64,000 nucleotides of DNA from Candidatus Latescibacterota bacterium. Its GTDB lineage: Bacteria; Latescibacterota; UBA2968; GCA-2709665. Where the stretch lies: contig OZ252100.1 of the NCBI GenBank assembly GCA_965248435.1, forward strand, positions 5,216,001-5,280,000, given 5' to 3'. Position numbers and translations under genes: made by a program. Under the pieces are notes generated by a model that saw only the letters and a list, made by a program, of their open reading frames with translations, was not told the DNA's origin and ran no database searches. Below are positions 871-54,128 of this stretch, in pieces. Within the stretch, counting starts at the first letter, position 1. Each line of letters begins with the position of its first letter.

Positions 871-1011
871 AAGGGTGGCGGTTGCGGTAGCCCTTTTCTT
901 GTGGCGAGACAAGAAAAGCATGCCCTGAGCTTGCCGAAGGGTTGGCCGCCGGAGGCACGGGGCTGTGGGGTGGGGCGAATGGCTTCAGGGTCTAATAAAC
1001 ACGAGTGTCTT

Positions 1012-2280
1012 TTACTCGGAAACCGACACACCTTCCACGGAATCGAGTGAAGGCGGTCTTCCGCCGGGGAAATATTCATACCCACGGAGGTCGATAGGCG
1101 ATGCGGTCCCGGCCCACTCTACGCCCAGTTCAGAGAAGAGTTTTCCCTCCTCGAACGTCTGATCGAGCAGGTCCGAAATGCCCTCGATGGTCTGAAACCG
1201 GTCTACGACCCCATCCCGATTCGTTTCTGAGACCTCTTCGACGTGCGAGGCAGGTATTTGAGCGATTTCAGGACAGCTTTCGTGGGCGCCGTTAGCGCAG
1301 AGGGTCTGTGAGTTGCTGTTTTCAGGGATGCAGAGGAGCTCGGCCCCTTCGCGAATACCCTGGATCACATTGCGGAAGGGGAGGGTCGCGAGGTCGACGT
1401 CACCGTTGTCGAGTCTCTCTTCCTTCCCGTCTTCGTGGTCGATCCGGGTTTCTCCCTCCTCGAACTTCCAGTTGGCGATCGCGTTCTCACAGAAAAGTCG
1501 CATCCGCGGATGTTTAGTCTCCATCGTCGCGTGTGAGAACGCGAGAACGATCTCCACGCCGCTCGTGGTCAGCACGCGCATGCTTACGGTATCGGCAGTC
1601 TCGATATCACGAGCGTGATAGAGTTCGGCCTCTACCGACGCCACACCTGCTGTCTCGTTCTGATCGGCGCCGCAGAGGAAGAGGGCGTTGTTGAGATAGT
1701 GCGAAAACGCATTGTTGAACAGGCTGTCGATCACCCACCTGTCGCCAAGCTTGAGCTTTCCCGCCCATTCGTTTCGTGTGTAGTAGACATCCCCCCTCGG
1801 CCATCCGGACTTGACGTGGATCATCTTTGGTAGACCCAGAGCCCCTTCCAGAAGTCGCGATTTCAGAGTCTGAATCGATCGGCTGTAGATATTCTGATAG
1901 CCGATGGCGACGTGTCTTCCGGTCTTCCGCTTTGCGGCGATGACCCGATCTGCCTCCTGTACGACAGAGGTGAGCGGTTTTTCGCAGACGACGTCGCAGC
2001 CGCTCTCGATACAGGCTACGGTCTGCGGGACGTGGTCGTGCATGCCCGTGGCCAGCGTCACGACGTCGACCCCACCTGCGCTCAAGAGGTCTTCGAGCGA
2101 TTCGAAGGTCCGGATCCCTCTCTGAGAAAGCACCGCGAGCTGGTCGGCAACTCGATCTGGACGATGATCCACGACGGCCTCCAGCCGGGCGATCCCTTCG
2201 GCTTCGAGCGTGTTGATGACGTCGATGTGCGTGTCGCCATATCCGCCGATTCCAACGACAGCGAACCTCACAGGCTCCAT
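1012..2280 (-). CDS. Gfo/Idh/MocA family oxidoreductase
   Basis: GIGGYG Rossmann motif, CEKP motif. Confidence 0.9.
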   Translation of the reverse strand: MEPVRFAVVGIGGYGDTHIDVINTLEAEGIARLEAVVDHRPDRVADQLAVLSQRGIRTFESLEDLLSAGGVDVVTLATGMHDHVPQTVACIESGCDVVCEKPLTSVVQEADRVIAAKRKTGRHVAIGYQNIYSRSIQTLKSRLLEGALGLPKMIHVKSGWPRGDVYYTRNEWAGKLKLGDRWVIDSLFNNAFSHYLNNALFLCGADQNETAGVASVEAELYHARDIETADTVSMRVLTTSGVEIVLAFSHATMETKHPRMRLFCENAIANWKFEEGETRIDHEDGKEERLDNGDVDLATLPFRNVIQGIREGAELLCIPENSNSQTLCANGAHESCPEIAQIPASHVEEVSETNRDGVVDRFQTIEGISDLLDQTFEEGKLFSELGVEWAGTASPIDLRGYEYFPGGRPPSLDSVEGVSVSE

Positions 2281-49973: not shown

Positions 49974-50936
49974 ATGGCAGTCATTACGATTTCCAGACAA
50001 ATCGGAAGCAGCGGTGAAGCAATCGCCCGGGGTGTGGCCGAGCACCTGGGGTTTGTCTTTATTGATCGGGCCGGGCTCGAGGACCTCGTGCTCACCTACG
50101 GCCTCGATGAGGTAGACCTTCCCCGGATCCAGGAGCGACCTCCCAACTTCTTGGAGCGTTTATACTCAGACCGGAAGTTGTATCTGCAACTTGTCGAATC
50201 CTTCATTCGAGATACGGCGGAATATGAGAATTTCGTCCTCATCGGGCGGGGAGGTCAGTGCGTCTTCAAGGATTCTGAAAATGCGTTCCACGTTCGGGTT
50301 GTTGCCTCTGAGCGAAACCGAATAGAAAACCTGGTGGAAGCTGAATCACTCGAGAGAGAAAAGGCGCGGAGCAGACTGATTGAAGCAGAGCGAACCCAGC
50401 AACGCTTTGTTGAAACCCTTTACGGAAGAAGCATAGATGACCCGTACCTCTACGATCTTGTGCTACGAACAGATCAACTCGATGTTCGGGCGTGCGTCCA
50501 CCTGATCATCCATGCCGTAGGACAACGATCTCTGACAGTACATCTCCAATCGAAAGATGTGCCCGAGAAAACTTCTGAGGCGGAAGGCGTTGCAGGTTCG
50601 CGGGTAGAAAAAACACACACTTTTGCGAACACGAGCGAAGAAGCGTTCGCAAAGATTCTGGATTTTTATCGGATCCGATGGGAGTATGAGCCAAGAACGT
50701 TTCAGTTGGAATGGGATGAGGAGGGTTTGGTCAAGGAGGCCTTCTCGCCAGACTTCTATCTGGTCGATTCGGATACGTATATCGAACTGACGACGCTGAG
50801 ACAAAGCCTTGTGACCAAAAAAAACCGCAAGTTGCGCCGGCTAAAGGAACTCTATCCGGAGGTCAACGTGCGGATCTTTTACAAGAGGGATTATCAGAAC
50901 CTTCTGATCAAATATGGACTCGTAAAAACAAAATGA
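49974..50936 (+). CDS. Cytidylate-kinase-like protein fused to a PD-(D/E)XK-like domain
   Basis: ITISRQIGSSG, GRGG, YDLVL; C-terminal WEYEP..FSPDFYL...YIELT. Confidence 0.85.
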   Translation: MAVITISRQIGSSGEAIARGVAEHLGFVFIDRAGLEDLVLTYGLDEVDLPRIQERPPNFLERLYSDRKLYLQLVESFIRDTAEYENFVLIGRGGQCVFKDSENAFHVRVVASERNRIENLVEAESLEREKARSRLIEAERTQQRFVETLYGRSIDDPYLYDLVLRTDQLDVRACVHLIIHAVGQRSLTVHLQSKDVPEKTSEAEGVAGSRVEKTHTFANTSEEAFAKILDFYRIRWEYEPRTFQLEWDEEGLVKEAFSPDFYLVDSDTYIELTTLRQSLVTKKNRKLRRLKELYPEVNVRIFYKRDYQNLLIKYGLVKTK

Positions 50937-51124
50937 ACCCCAAGTGACCTTCATCAGTCCTTTGAGATTTCTGCCCTGTTCGACTTCCCCGGTTCTCAGA
51001 AAGAATCCATCCGGATTTCAGTGTTTCCGTCCTGCAACTCCTGCCAACGGATTCTTTCTCCCCGGAAAAGCTCCTCGAACGGGTTTTCGAAGGTTCAAAG
51101 GACTTTAGGACCTCTTGGGGTTCA
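50934..51124 (-). ncRNA. ssrS: 6S-like rod-shaped RNA, copy B (probable ssrS)
   Basis: About 190 nt; terminal stem, TTTGAACC..GGAGC 5' strand, central bubble, apical stem; dedicated sigma70 promoter; covariation with copy A. Confidence 0.65.
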
Positions 51125-51130
51125 AGGGTC

Positions 51131-51159
51131 AATCTATACCAACCCCTGGCGTTTGTCAA
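51131..51159 (-). promoter_or_regulatory. sigma70 promoter of RNA copy B
   Basis: Minus strand TTGACA-17-TAGATT. Confidence 0.75.
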
Positions 51160-51261
51160 GGTTTTTTTATCGCAACTATAACCTTTGTTTCTACACGTTT
51201 ATATGACATTGTAAATATGTGATTTAAATAAATTGAAAACTGCCTAAGAGACGGGAAAACC

Positions 51262-51810
51262 ATGGAAAATGGGGAAAGTCGCGTCCAAAGGATCCTTATC
51301 GAAGCGGAGGCCATCCAACAAAAGGTTTCCGAGCTCGGCCGGCAAATCTCCGAAGACGAGACGGATGCGGCCGATCCACTCGTCCTCATCGGGATTCTAA
51401 AGGGGTCCCTCATATTTCTGGCCGACCTTTCCCGAGCGATCTCCAACCCGATCCAGATCGAGTTTATGTCGATTTCGAGTTATGATGCCAGCCAGAGCTC
51501 GGGTGTCGTCCGAATTCTGAAGGACCTGGATGTTAACATCACAAACCGCCGCGTTCTGATCGTGGAGGGCATCATCGACACTGGACTTACCCTCAACTAC
51601 GTCCTTCGAAGCCTCCAGGCAAGAAGACCTGAAAGTCTGAAAGTTTGCACGCTCCTCGACAAACCCGCACGCCGCTCGGTTGACATCCCGATCGACTATC
51701 TGGGTTTCACGATTCCAGATGAATTCGTTGTCGGCTACGGTCTCGATTTTAACCAGGAGTTTCGAAATCTGCCCTTTATCGGGGTCCTGGACTCGGGCGG
51801 CCACGCTTAG
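51262..51810 (+). CDS. hpt: Hypoxanthine phosphoribosyltransferase (PRPP motif reads VEGIIDTG)
   Basis: GILKGS..FLADL, SSY, IIDTGLTL, LLDK, FVVGYGLD. Confidence 0.9.
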   Translation: MENGESRVQRILIEAEAIQQKVSELGRQISEDETDAADPLVLIGILKGSLIFLADLSRAISNPIQIEFMSISSYDASQSSGVVRILKDLDVNITNRRVLIVEGIIDTGLTLNYVLRSLQARRPESLKVCTLLDKPARRSVDIPIDYLGFTIPDEFVVGYGLDFNQEFRNLPFIGVLDSGGHA

Positions 51811-51910
51811 CAGGTTGTCGCTCGCCAGCGGATCGAATCGTGGGTGGGTATGCAAAGATCGTCTCGCCATTCGTTGATTGAGGATAAGACCGAGGGAGAG
51901 TTCACGAATC

Positions 51911-51976
51911 ACTATATTAGAAATGGTAATATAGTCTATAAAAATACTTGACATATCTCAGATTTTTGACTATGTT
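51911..51976 (+). promoter_or_regulatory. Palindromic operator plus sigma70 promoter of the large ncRNA
   Basis: ACTATATTA-GAAATGG-TAATATAGT (51911-51935); TTGACA-17-TATGTT (51948-51976). Confidence 0.75.
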
Positions 51977-51983
51977 CTTCATT

Positions 51984-52325
51984 GAGGAATGAACAACAAT
52001 TTTGGCAGGCGTCCGAATGGTCTGGAGTTTCGACCGAGAGCTCGCTGTGAGATCGATGCCCCGTTGGCTTCAGCATCCTCCTGCTGATCTGGAATGAATA
52101 TTCCGAGTAGGCGACGATCTCCAATGCTCAACGTTGGAGAGTGGGATCACGGGCGTGAGTTGTGGGCCGGGAACCTGTAACAAAGAGGAGGGTCTATGCC
52201 ACCGGACTGTTTAGCCGGCCGTAATCCTGCAAGATGTCGGTGGATTCTCCCTTACGGCCTACAAAAATTGAGATGAGCAAGTTAAAACGGCCGCGATGAG
52301 TCTTCTCTCGTCGCGGCCGTTCTAT
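51984..52325 (+). ncRNA. Unrecognised multi-stem structured RNA of about 340 nt
   Basis: Bounded by a promoter and a terminator; several stems, closing helix CAATTTT/AAAATTG, possible TCCTCC/GGAGGG pseudoknot; no long ORF on the + strand. Confidence 0.6.
52286..52325. terminator. Intrinsic terminator
   Basis: AACGGCCGCGATGAG / CTCGTCGCGGCCGTT 15-bp stem. Confidence 0.8.
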
Positions 52326-52369
52326 TCGAGATACTGATCGGATAACCGGAATCGTAAATTGAGTATACG

Positions 52370-52437
52370 GTATATATTAGAAATTATAATATATACAATT
52401 AAATTAACTTGCGATTTGGCAAGAATTTGTTTAATAT
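52370..52437 (+). promoter_or_regulatory. Second copy of the palindromic operator plus promoter of the sigma factor gene
   Basis: GTATATATTA-GAAATTA-TAATATATAC (52370-52396); TTGCGA-17-TAATAT (52409-52437). Confidence 0.65.
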
Positions 52438-52565
52438 TTGCGAGAAAGACTTTTGAAGGTTATTTCAAGGGGATAGAATTACTGGTCTGACGGGCGTGAA
52501 CTATGTTGGGGAATGGATAGGCAGAGAAGACAGTATCGCCATAACCCTTTCCTGGATCTCCTGCC

Positions 52566-53429
52566 ATGGCAGATGGTAAACGTGCAGCTGGGGCGAACGC
52601 AGAAGATTCCTTACTCAACTATATGGAGAGCATATCCACATCTCGTCCGCTCTCTCCACGGGAAGAAGCGGCCCTGGCCCGGCGAATCCGAAAGGGCGAT
52701 CTTAGTGCTCGAGACAGGCTGGTCGAAGCCAATCTGAGATTTGTCGTTCGGGTTGCTCGCGAATACCGGAATTTGGGCGCACCCCTTAACGACTTGATCA
52801 GTGCTGGTAACGTTGGATTAATACAAGCAGCAGAACGGTTCGATGAGACCAAGGGATTCAAGTTTATTACTTATGCGGTCTGGTGGATCCGGCAGCAGAT
52901 CATGGAGTCGCTTTCCGATTATCCACGACTGGTGAGACTACCGTCCAACCGGCTTGAGTTACTTCATAAAATAGGCCGTTGTATTAAATCCTCGCAATCT
53001 AAAAGTAACTCTTTGCCATCTAACGAGGAGATCGCTAGAGAGCTGGGAATTACTGTAGGCAAACTTGTGGATACTGTTCTAAAGGGCCGGGACGTGCTCT
53101 CTTTAGATGCTGTATTCGATGGTGCAAACTTCCAAAGTTTGATGGACGTGACGCCTGATCAAACCCAGGAATCGCCGGAGGAACAACTGGCCCGCACCAC
53201 TCGGGACAGCGAGATCCAATCTGCGTTGGGCACATTGGAAGAACGTGAACGAGACGTCCTCTTAATGTACTTCGGCTTGGATGGCAAAGGCAGTAGGACC
53301 CTGAATGACATAGGGTGCGATTTGGGGGTGAGTCGCGAACGTGTGCGCCAGATTAAGGAGAAGGCGCTCATTAAGCTGCGGCATCCAATGCGAGGTCAGA
53401 AGCTCCTGAAATACGCGCTGGAGATGTGA
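52566..53429 (+). CDS. RNA polymerase sigma factor, RpoD/RpoS family, short form without region 1.1
   Basis: LVEANLRFVV, DLISAGNVGL, KFITYAVWWIRQ, GVSRERVRQI. Confidence 0.95.
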   Translation: MADGKRAAGANAEDSLLNYMESISTSRPLSPREEAALARRIRKGDLSARDRLVEANLRFVVRVAREYRNLGAPLNDLISAGNVGLIQAAERFDETKGFKFITYAVWWIRQQIMESLSDYPRLVRLPSNRLELLHKIGRCIKSSQSKSNSLPSNEEIARELGITVGKLVDTVLKGRDVLSLDAVFDGANFQSLMDVTPDQTQESPEEQLARTTRDSEIQSALGTLEERERDVLLMYFGLDGKGSRTLNDIGCDLGVSRERVRQIKEKALIKLRHPMRGQKLLKYALEM

Positions 53430-53561
53430 CCTCAATAGTATCTTAGCGCGACACAATGTCGTGTTCCTGCGGGCGAATAGCCCTGACTGAAGGGGGCGCG
53501 ACACTTTTTTCTAGACAGGTGTAAGTAGCAATCATTCCAGGAAGATAGCGCGCTTCCTCAT

Positions 53562-54128
53562 TCATCTTATCGCCTCCTGCCTGATTACGTCCAGGGACTT
53601 TCGAGCGGACTGTCGGATGAGACGATCCAGGATCCACCCCGGGATGAAAAAGGCAGGTCGGAGTCGAGTGGACAAGTGCAGGCGCTGCCCATCCGGATTC
53701 GACTCCAGCGTCCAGGATGTGTCAAACGTGTGGAAGTCTCCCTCGATTAGTTTGCAGACTATCTGAACTGGCGGTCTCTCCTCGATCCTGCGGACAGCCC
53801 TCACGCGTCTGGAAAAGAAAAGAAAGCGTGCTTTGAGGATTTGCTCGATAACGATGGCGCCGTCCGGATGACGGGCAAGGATCCTGCTTGCTTCGATGTT
53901 GGGTTGGAAAGTCTCCGGGTTGTCATAATCCGTGAGCGCCTTCTACAGGATATCCGAGGTCACAGGGACGTCGATGGTTCCCGTGATGACACGAACTTCG
54001 CCCTCTTTGTGAAGGCTGACGTTGGCTTCGTTTTCTACCTGGGAAGACGGGTCAAGAGGGCAGAGGAGGGTGGTGCATAGAAACAGGATCTTGGGAAGGT
54101 AAAAGGTACCTGGTAAGTGGATCCGCAT
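53562..54128 (-). pseudogene. SRPBCC (polyketide cyclase-like) protein interrupted by an in-frame TAG
   Basis: ORFs 53943-54128 and 53562-53804 are in one frame; reads IL*KALTDYDN where the family usually has W..LTDY. Confidence 0.75.

Follow-up and report, generated by a model that had tools for sequence, protein, structure and literature searches.

We analysed a 64,000-nt stretch of the genome of a Candidatus Latescibacterota bacterium (assembly GCA_965248435.1, contig OZ252100.1, positions 5,216,001 to 5,280,000 of the forward strand), called the window in the following, and concentrated on the intergenic stretch between an hpt-like phosphoribosyltransferase gene (51262-51810) and a sigma-70 family gene (52566-53429, + strand), both named from Pfam. 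An earlier reading of the DNA letters, referred to here as the original prediction, had placed in this interval an unrecognised structured RNA that forms a co-induced module with the sigma gene. The RNA gene comprises ~340 nt (51983-52325, + strand), its start being inferred from the -10 hexamer and its end from the terminator. The near-consensus sigma-70-type promoter TTGACA-17-TATGTT was confirmed by a promoter scan at 51948-51976 and has counterparts in homologues. Likewise confirmed was the GC-rich terminator stem-loop with a stem of 15 bp (52286-52321), which has a weak T-run on the + strand, and no + strand open reading frame (ORF) of at least 60 amino acids lies between promoter and terminator.

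In the promoter scan, 4 promoter-like sites were found, compared to 2.6 expected from the shuffle control, so that a single site is within chance. The minimum free energy (MFE) of the 343-nt RNA was -129.3 kcal/mol (z = -3.07), and none of 100 shuffled sequences was equally stable. As the minus strand of the RNA segment folds as well (z = -4.3), fold energy alone neither proves an RNA nor assigns its strand. With a promoter within chance and a fold energy that does not decide, the case for the RNA rests on the comparison with relatives described below.

The RNA does not belong to any family in Rfam. A search of the whole window with Rfam 15 gave no match at the gathering score, and in the region 50700-53600 only three chance-level matches were obtained at E values up to 10, the sole weak one inside the RNA being that of the terminator stem to a miRNA model. 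When 11 related loci were searched, nothing was found within the RNA, and the only match was a ZTP riboswitch downstream of it in locus L115. The unrecognised status assigned in the original prediction therefore stands. Its statement that the RNA has no signature of RNase P RNA, tmRNA or signal recognition particle (SRP) RNA also holds, as the genome's own copies of all three were found elsewhere with scores above the cut-off (RF00010, 303 bits; RF00023, 206 bits; RF00169, 72 bits). The 6S model RF00013 detected nothing in the whole genome at E ≤0.001 and nothing in 50700-53600 at E values up to 10, with a model that is insensitive and in a control detected 6S RNA in 5 of 14 reference genomes. 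A full-text literature search returned no paper on non-coding RNAs of Latescibacteria, a group with few or no known cultured members; the papers it returned for riboswitches in Latescibacterota do not, to judge from their titles and the openings of their abstracts, deal with such an RNA.

Relatives of the RNA were then identified. BLAST matched its 3′ half in a congener (genome G001; the window's genome is G000) and a short piece in genome G037. In the congener the RNA again adjoins hpt and a TTGACA-17-TATATT promoter is present at the same place, with no sigma gene downstream. A small covariance model of the conserved core, R1, detected one copy each in 9 of the 53 genomes of the order. All nine homologues carry a sigma-70-type promoter about 170-195 nt upstream of the core and on the strand originally predicted; the terminator hairpin with a T-run that follows downstream is clear in eight of them and weak in G038. 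With R2, a 209-position covariance model built from these nine sequences, the RNA was found in 38 of the 53 genomes at E ≤0.1. By genus, R2 matched 21/21 genomes of g6, 3/3 of g10, 2/2 each of g2, g5 and g9, 2/3 of g8, 2/15 of g3 and 0/1 of g7; the two g3 matches were weak and were rejected, as the sequence in which they lie looks coding. Across the phylum, R2 matched 41 of 151 sampled genomes at E ≤0.01. By family, the counts were 3/18 for f1, 26/30 for f2, 10/64 for f3 and 1/2 for f4, and 0/36 for ten other families.

A scan of the genome contigs for an exact pattern yielded 92 stretches, 80 of which (L023-L102) were scored with R1. Eight of the 80 scored well and, having identical scores, are apparently relatives already known; one further match was marginal (13.5 bits, E 0.45), and the remaining stretches were chance matches, mostly in GC-rich genomes. 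The corresponding metagenome scan gave seven stretches with five true members, two of which (L166 and L167) differ from the known sequences, the other three being identical or near-identical to them. Copies usually occur once or twice per genome, each with its own promoter and terminator. By a crude rule, the promoter is located at a fixed distance in 37 of 47 loci, and 39 of 47 have a terminator hairpin with a T-run, under a T-run test that the window's own terminator failed. A divergent second copy is present in the window's genome outside the window (L144, contig 1, 4543710-4543947, + strand, 69.5 bits); it has its own TTGACA-17-TATAAT promoter and an 8-codon frame, MDFCLTWP, whose stop codon lies in the 5′ arm of the terminator. 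As far as searched, the family is restricted to one class of Candidatus Latescibacterota.

Conservation in relatives, for which the original prediction had asked together with covariation, is matched by a conserved fold. The 5′ two-thirds of the RNA contain three nested, long-range helices, P1 (52002-52006/52166-52170), P2 (52009-52014/52151-52156) and P3 (52019-52023/52144-52148), of which P3 encloses variable distal hairpins. An alignment of 39 sequences, which was fitted to the model, showed 3 of the 5 pairs of P1 changed on both sides with 95.4% of the cells paired, 4 of the 6 pairs of P2 (96.6% paired) and 3 of the 5 pairs of P3 (94.4% paired). Over P1-P3, 93.9% of the cells form standard pairs, compared to 29.6-47.5% when the 3′ partners were slid by 1-3 columns, and 11 of 19 pairs are changed on both sides, compared to 1-4 in the slid controls. 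None of 500 shuffles reached any of the observed measures. When nine sequences were aligned with MAFFT and not fitted to the model, compensatory changes were still present in 8 of the 19 predicted pairs; as the stems of H1-H4 were out of register in this alignment, the covariation counts are confined to the other helices. G-U pairs are frequent in P2 and P3 (for example, GU in 22 of 39 sequences at one pair), and since these would be A-C mismatches on the opposite strand, the + strand is the functional one.

Most helices of the original prediction are present in the sequence, and further elements of the fold recur in relatives. The closing helix P0 (CAATTTT/AAAATTG, 51997-52003/52264-52270), which ends just before the stop codon of the mini-ORF described below, has counterparts at the same place in relatives (GUCAG/CUGAC in g6, AUUU/AAAU in L142). 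Helix P2 is followed by an internal loop with GAAU (52015-52018) opposite AC (52149-52150), and a conserved unpaired stretch, GAGUUGUGG, lies between the 3′ strands of P2 and P1 (52157-52165), where it is near-invariant in nine sequences and reads GUGUGAC in g6. The MFE fold places two distal hairpins at 52070-52104, H1 (TCAGCA/TGCTGA, with the loop TCCTCC at 52076-52081) and H2 (GGAAT/ATTCC, 52091-52104). H1, judged by eye, recurs as GUCAG/CUGAC and GCCAG/CUGGC. H2 recurs with the stems GGAAA/UUUCC, GGGAU/AUCCC and GGGAA/UUCCC, in 12 of 47 loci by a strict rule. H1 loops are pyrimidine-rich in several lineages and not consistently complementary to the Shine-Dalgarno (SD) sequence, whose GGAGG is invariant. 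Hairpin H4 of the MFE fold, formed by GGCCGTAA and TTACGGCC (52217-52259), is retained in the congener at the nucleotide level. One pairing of the original prediction, AGCTC..TGTGA with TCACGG..GAGTT, is unsupported, because 52144-52156 pairs with 52009-52023 in P2 and P3 according to both MFE and covariation. The comparisons indicate that, in the 5′ two-thirds of the RNA, the long-range helices P0-P3 stack into a conserved domain whose internal loops are conserved and whose distal hairpins vary, and that the whole is a real, separately transcribed structured RNA of an undescribed family.

A feature that had been missed in the original prediction lies directly downstream of this domain. After P1 and a linker of ~13-17 nt, an AGGAGG box is followed at a distance of 3-6 nt by a start codon and two proline codons. 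In the window, the SD sequence AGGAGGG (52186-52192) stands 3 nt before the start codon of a mini-ORF of 26 codons plus stop (MPPDCLAGRNPARCRWILPYGLQKLR, 52196-52276), and GGAGG is present in 40 of 44 homologues. The pattern GGAG, 4-10 nt spacer, [A/G/T]TG, CCN, CNN likewise fits 40 of the 44. What this pattern left free to vary was the start codon, the third base of both proline codons and, in codon 3, the second base as well. Among 31 unique sequences, the start codon was ATG in 28, GTG in 2 and TTG in 1, codon 2 varied only at the third base (CCA 26, CCG 5), and so did codon 3 (CCG 14, CCA 10, CCT 7). More remote members, from families f3 and f4 and from a metagenome contig, likewise begin with ATG CCG CC[G/T], the next residue being D, G, Y, N, V or E. 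In L145 and L151 (genus g9), the stop codon of the frame overlaps the ATG of a gene for a CBS-pair protein as ATGA, the usual layout for translational coupling, which implies reading of the frame by a ribosome; the peptides encoded at the two loci differ. Judged from these patterns, the mini-ORF is probably translated.

Apart from M-P-P-x and a preference for a hydrophobic residue at position 5 or 6, the predicted peptides of 6-32 residues have nothing in common; beyond about residue 6 there is no conservation. Between the window and the congener, a 1-nt insertion or deletion shifts the frame after residue 13, and the nucleotides beyond it, including the H4 helix, stay conserved. In g6 an 18-residue peptide is kept with few changes, with its later conserved residues coinciding with a covarying hairpin (GAUCGGG/CCCGAUC versus GGUCGGG/CCCGACC). 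The loop of this hairpin pairs with a second SD-like box (ACCUCU/GGAGGU versus UCUCC/GGAGA), which is not followed by an ATG in three loci. A type I toxin mRNA, considered because of the pairing between the 5′ and 3′ ends, was rejected, as the peptides are short, variable and not hydrophobic. The frame looks like a regulatory leader ORF rather than one for a functional peptide.

In the simplest members (f3, f4, genus g8 and the second copy in the window's genome), a frame of 8-12 codons has its stop codon inside the 5′ arm or the loop of the terminator, and a stop codon in or at the terminator was found in L118, L120, L144, L152-L156 and L163-L165. In G006, G002 and G004, the arms of an upstream hairpin are nearly identical to those of the terminator, so that a 2:3 pairing is possible. 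In five relatives (G001, G037, G045, G004 and L144; loci L117, L118, L120, L116 and L144), ~18 nt before P1 are complementary to the terminator 3′ arm and T-run, with duplex energies of -12 to -20 kcal/mol; this complementarity would allow pairing of the RNA ends or competition with the terminator. Two features of leader-peptide attenuators are present, a short, probably translated ORF with a ribosome-binding site in the leader, and a terminator that overlaps or closely follows this ORF. We put at about even the chance that the RNA is a leader-peptide, translation-sensing riboregulator of the pyrL/mgtP type that is mostly free-standing.

A translation-sensing mechanism is plausible on these grounds and could operate as follows. 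Pro-Pro with G, D, E or N as the next residue ranks with the strongest stall motifs that depend on elongation factor P (EF-P). The Pro-Pro at codons 2-3 would slow the ribosome unless prolyl-tRNA and EF-P suffice. A ribosome passing it fast would reach the end of the frame and melt the 5′ arm of the terminator; a ribosome stalled at codons 2-3 would, by its usual footprint, end just short of the terminator, and the hairpin could form. The folded 5′ domain, in which P1-P3 provide the conserved and covarying fold expected of an aptamer-like element, would probably be a second input, a ligand or protein site adjoining the ribosome-binding site. As the element stands alone in the window and in most relatives, the terminated RNA itself would be the main product.

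The genes next to the RNA were examined at 50 related places (39 + 8 + 3). Neighbours vary from lineage to lineage, and the gene downstream is often unrelated or convergent, the latter in g6, G005, G008, L142 and L150. In five genomes of the order, all from f2 genera (G037, G045, the second copy of G038, G047 and G044), a CBS-pair gene lies directly downstream, and in L145 and L151 no terminator precedes it. In G042 a reduced version without the 5′ domain (MPPGCL plus terminator) precedes the CBS gene. The window genome's own CBS-pair gene (G000, C1:368022) and that of G004 have no such leader. From the gene order, the element is thus a leader in certain lineages, whereas in most, and also in the window, it is a gene that stands on its own. 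Upstream of the CBS-pair gene in L160 (G042, 880-1240, minus strand) and L135 (G044, 1501-1620), we also noticed further SD-bearing mini-ORFs ending in R-P-D-T-stop (MPTRPDT, MPRPDT and MHRPDT), which may represent a second kind of proline-containing leader frame. In L115 (G002), the ZMP/ZTP riboswitch mentioned above (RF01750, 53.3 bits, 1858-1945, + strand) is located between the terminator of the RNA and the next gene, which is 2-hydroxyacid dehydrogenase-like.

Sequences of the RNA were also present in RNA libraries. Four metatranscriptome runs, which come from one study with at most three samples labelled marine, each contained one contig of 238-280 nt that was 90-95% like the window. These contigs cover 52004-52236, run on for ~38 nt that match the relative and not the window, and include no flanking gene; their mean word depth was 11.9-257.3. 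Relative to the window, the expressed relative has an A-to-G exchange at 52206 that turns codon 4 from Asp to Gly, an alternation also seen elsewhere in the family. That other parts of the window were not covered says nothing on the expression of hpt or the sigma gene.

Several of the observations weigh against a translation-sensing leader as the function of the RNA. The search pattern itself imposed the first two bases of codon 2 (CC) and the first of codon 3 (C), and 4 of the 44 homologues lack the Met-Pro-Pro start: G008 combines a degenerate SD sequence with Pro-Leu, different short frames are present in the paralogues L144 and L146, and G044 has a short tandem copy encoding MHRPDT. The hairpin and second box of g6 show that RNA constraints can mimic coding in this element. 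In the window, the stop codon of the frame (52274-52276) is located 9 nt before the terminator stem and not inside it, with the extra hairpin at 52217-52259 inserted. A regulated gene directly downstream, which an attenuator should have, is absent from most loci, where no co-oriented gene follows the terminator and read-through would lack an obvious target. Genus g3, which belongs to the same family, had no credible R2 match in 15 genomes. The library contigs fit an abundant discrete RNA in a close relative, and at the same time such contigs cannot show ends or strand and may stem from DNA carry-over. Finally, a role of the 5′ domain as ligand- or protein-binding input is conjectural; it is suggested by the location of a 170-nt domain beside the ribosome-binding site and by the conserved internal loops.

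The link between the RNA and the sigma gene was assessed separately. The palindrome TATATTAGAAATNNTAATATA (TATATTA-N7-TAATATA) was confirmed at 51913-51933 and 52373-52393, with its centres 25 and 26 bp upstream of the -35 hexamers of the RNA promoter and the sigma gene promoter, respectively. The two copies align without gaps up to the -35 hexamer. The sigma gene promoter is a putative one, TTGCGA-17-TAATAT at 52409-52437 (+ strand), which was read from the sequence and is absent from the promoter-scan list. Allowing up to 3 mismatches, the palindrome has only these two matches in the 5.67-Mb genome, compared to 0 for a reversed-pattern control. As it is unique to the two promoters, we infer a common DNA-binding regulator in this genome, so that the RNA and the sigma paralogue are probably switched by the same protein here, and here only; with palindrome centres at about -61, this protein may be an activator. 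In the congener, the left half of the palindrome alone is conserved, at the same distance.

The sigma gene itself, with regions 1.2, 2, 3 and 4, is a lineage-specific paralogue. No close orthologue was found in the 52 other genomes of the order, the best match having 57% identity, the same as a paralogue within the genome; the gene is equally distant, at 57% identity or less, from all other sigma genes. At E ≤1e-30, there are 13 sigma-70 matches in the window's genome, 7 in the congener and 6-14 in other genomes of the order. Of the 50 places examined, just two, those in the window and in G038, have a sigma gene behind the RNA, and the two genes are not orthologous: that of G038 (L122, about 2347-2772) is 50% identical to the window's and apparently truncated, stopping after region 2/3. 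By eye, a transposase-like ORF lies beside it in L122, so that this may be an insertion-disrupted gene. The synteny that the original prediction had expected is thus not borne out, and in the congener the RNA stands beside hpt without a sigma gene. Of the proposed co-induced module, co-regulation in this genome is plausible owing to the unique palindrome; a tuning of the sigma factor or RNA polymerase by the RNA is unsupported and is disfavoured because the conserved ribosome-binding site and mini-ORF point to translation. The distribution of the two genes indicates that the RNA family is older and wider than its sigma neighbourhood, and that the sigma gene is an incidental neighbour, probably co-regulated in this one genome.

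We compared these results with other explanations for the RNA. One is a purely non-coding, trans-acting small RNA or sponge, in which SD-AUG-CCNCC serves as a binding site or decoy for the 30S subunit or for an RNA-binding protein such as the CBS-pair protein, with the folded domain providing stability and specificity. A stand-alone gene that has a terminator and a strong promoter with AT-rich sequence upstream, the presence of one or two copies per genome beside unrelated neighbours, and the high depth in the RNA libraries would all agree with it, as would the second SD-like box of g6, which is demonstrably structural. However, a mere binding site does not explain why the start position is occupied only by ATG, GTG or TTG and why the proline codons vary at their third bases alone; in addition, the ATGA overlaps with the CBS gene in two loci imply reading by a ribosome, and the box was not found to have a partner sequence in the RNA. 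We therefore regard this explanation as possible, yet rather unlikely. A related proposal keeps the translated frame and treats the RNA as a free-standing sensor of translation quality: through its Met-Pro-Pro mini-ORF, an abundant small RNA would report how well the cell can form Pro-Pro bonds (the status of EF-P and prolyl-tRNA), its 5′ domain would bind a metabolite or a protein such as the CBS-pair protein, and the RNA would act in trans as a sponge or switchable regulator and not on a gene downstream, the CBS leader form being its evolutionary source. This proposal is speculative, and we consider it unlikely.

If the element were instead a cis-acting leader, a riboswitch plus attenuator in which regulated read-through of the weak-tailed terminator feeds the sigma gene and so gives a cis version of the proposed co-induced module, one would expect what is indeed seen in the f2 genera, where it directly precedes the CBS-pair gene and, in L145 and L151, lacks a terminator and shows the stop/start overlap. 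The T-run of the terminator is interrupted in both G000 and the congener, and the common palindrome links the RNA to the sigma gene. On the other hand, the sigma gene has its own putative promoter 245 nt before its start and is present downstream at so few places, with genes that are not orthologous; the downstream gene is convergent in g6, G005, G008, L142 and L150, and in G002 the next gene is preceded by its own ZTP riboswitch. We judge this explanation to be improbable. An mRNA for a functional small Met-Pro-Pro protein, with the folded 5′ region as a long untranslated region, would account for the conservation of a strong SD sequence and start codon and for the little-changed 18-residue peptide of g6, but not for the lack of constraint on length (6-32 codons) and sequence after about residue 6 or for a frame shift between congeners whose nucleotides are conserved, and the conservation in g6 coincides with a covarying RNA hairpin; such a protein is very unlikely. 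The least credible explanation in our view, to the point of being almost dismissed, is that of the original prediction, a 6S-like action of the RNA through binding to the sigma factor or to RNA polymerase. It is in line with the adjoining sigma gene, the common palindrome and a genome without an Rfam 6S match. Against it, the RNA folds into a branched domain closed by P1-P3 and followed by an SD sequence and start codon, not into a rod with a central bubble, and the family occurs without a sigma neighbour. Moreover, the other strand carries a better 6S-like candidate at 50925-51125.

This second small-RNA candidate, which had already been called 6S-like, is located on the minus strand behind the promoter TTGACA-17-TAGATT (51159-51131). 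It forms a rod-like fold of ~190 nt (-85.5 kcal/mol, z = -5.69) with a U-rich tail and has no match to Rfam 6S.

The preferred reading, a translation-sensing leader RNA, has parallels in known systems. SgrS/SgrT, RNAIII/hld and SR1/SR1P are dual-function small RNAs that encode a small peptide. The RNA described here is likewise a separate structured small RNA with a mini-ORF that is probably translated; it differs in that its peptide is conserved only in the first residues and so looks regulatory. With riboswitch-type and orphan riboswitch-like leaders it shares a covarying domain with conserved internal loops directly upstream of a ribosome-binding site and terminator, whereas here no Rfam family matches and the downstream gene is not conserved. 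To 6S RNA it is similar as an abundant separate RNA of a few hundred nt, in this genome near a sigma gene, and dissimilar in its missing Rfam 6S match, its branched fold, and its SD sequence and start codon. Further parallels are the mgtA leader of Salmonella, which also contains a Mg2+-sensing RNA, and the mgtCBR leader. These leaders (with mgtL and mgtP) are long and structured, contain a short ORF with proline codons and form alternative stem-loops, and stalling at consecutive prolines, set by the EF-P level, changes downstream expression (PMC5021804, PMC5299641, PMC6460261); in Salmonella, ribosome stalling at the proline codons of mgtP controls mgtC (PMC5021804). There is no similarity to them in sequence or fold, the RNA described here is mostly free-standing with its prolines directly after the start codon, and the associated gene encodes a CBS-pair protein and not a transporter.

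For the terminator, a comparison is offered by the pyrBI leader, in which the short leader ORF pyrL runs into an intrinsic terminator and a closely following ribosome prevents hairpin formation. A polyproline motif placed before the pyrL leader of E. coli is reported to have led to more termination without EF-P, so that EF-P-dependent attenuation at a terminator was shown there with an engineered motif, and mgtP is mentioned as a natural leader ORF with proline codons (PMC5021804). In the family described here, the Pro-Pro is natural and occupies codons 2-3; the ~170 nt before the SD sequence are folded into a conserved domain, most copies lack a co-oriented gene, and no sequence similarity to pyrL exists. 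The family represents a well-defined new RNA, supported by covariation, in which a large folded domain is combined with a natural Met-Pro-Pro leader ORF abutting a terminator. If the translation-sensing reading is true, the family would be a natural, widely conserved instance of gene control through the rate at which proline-proline bonds form, and it would offer a handle on what the 5′ domain senses.

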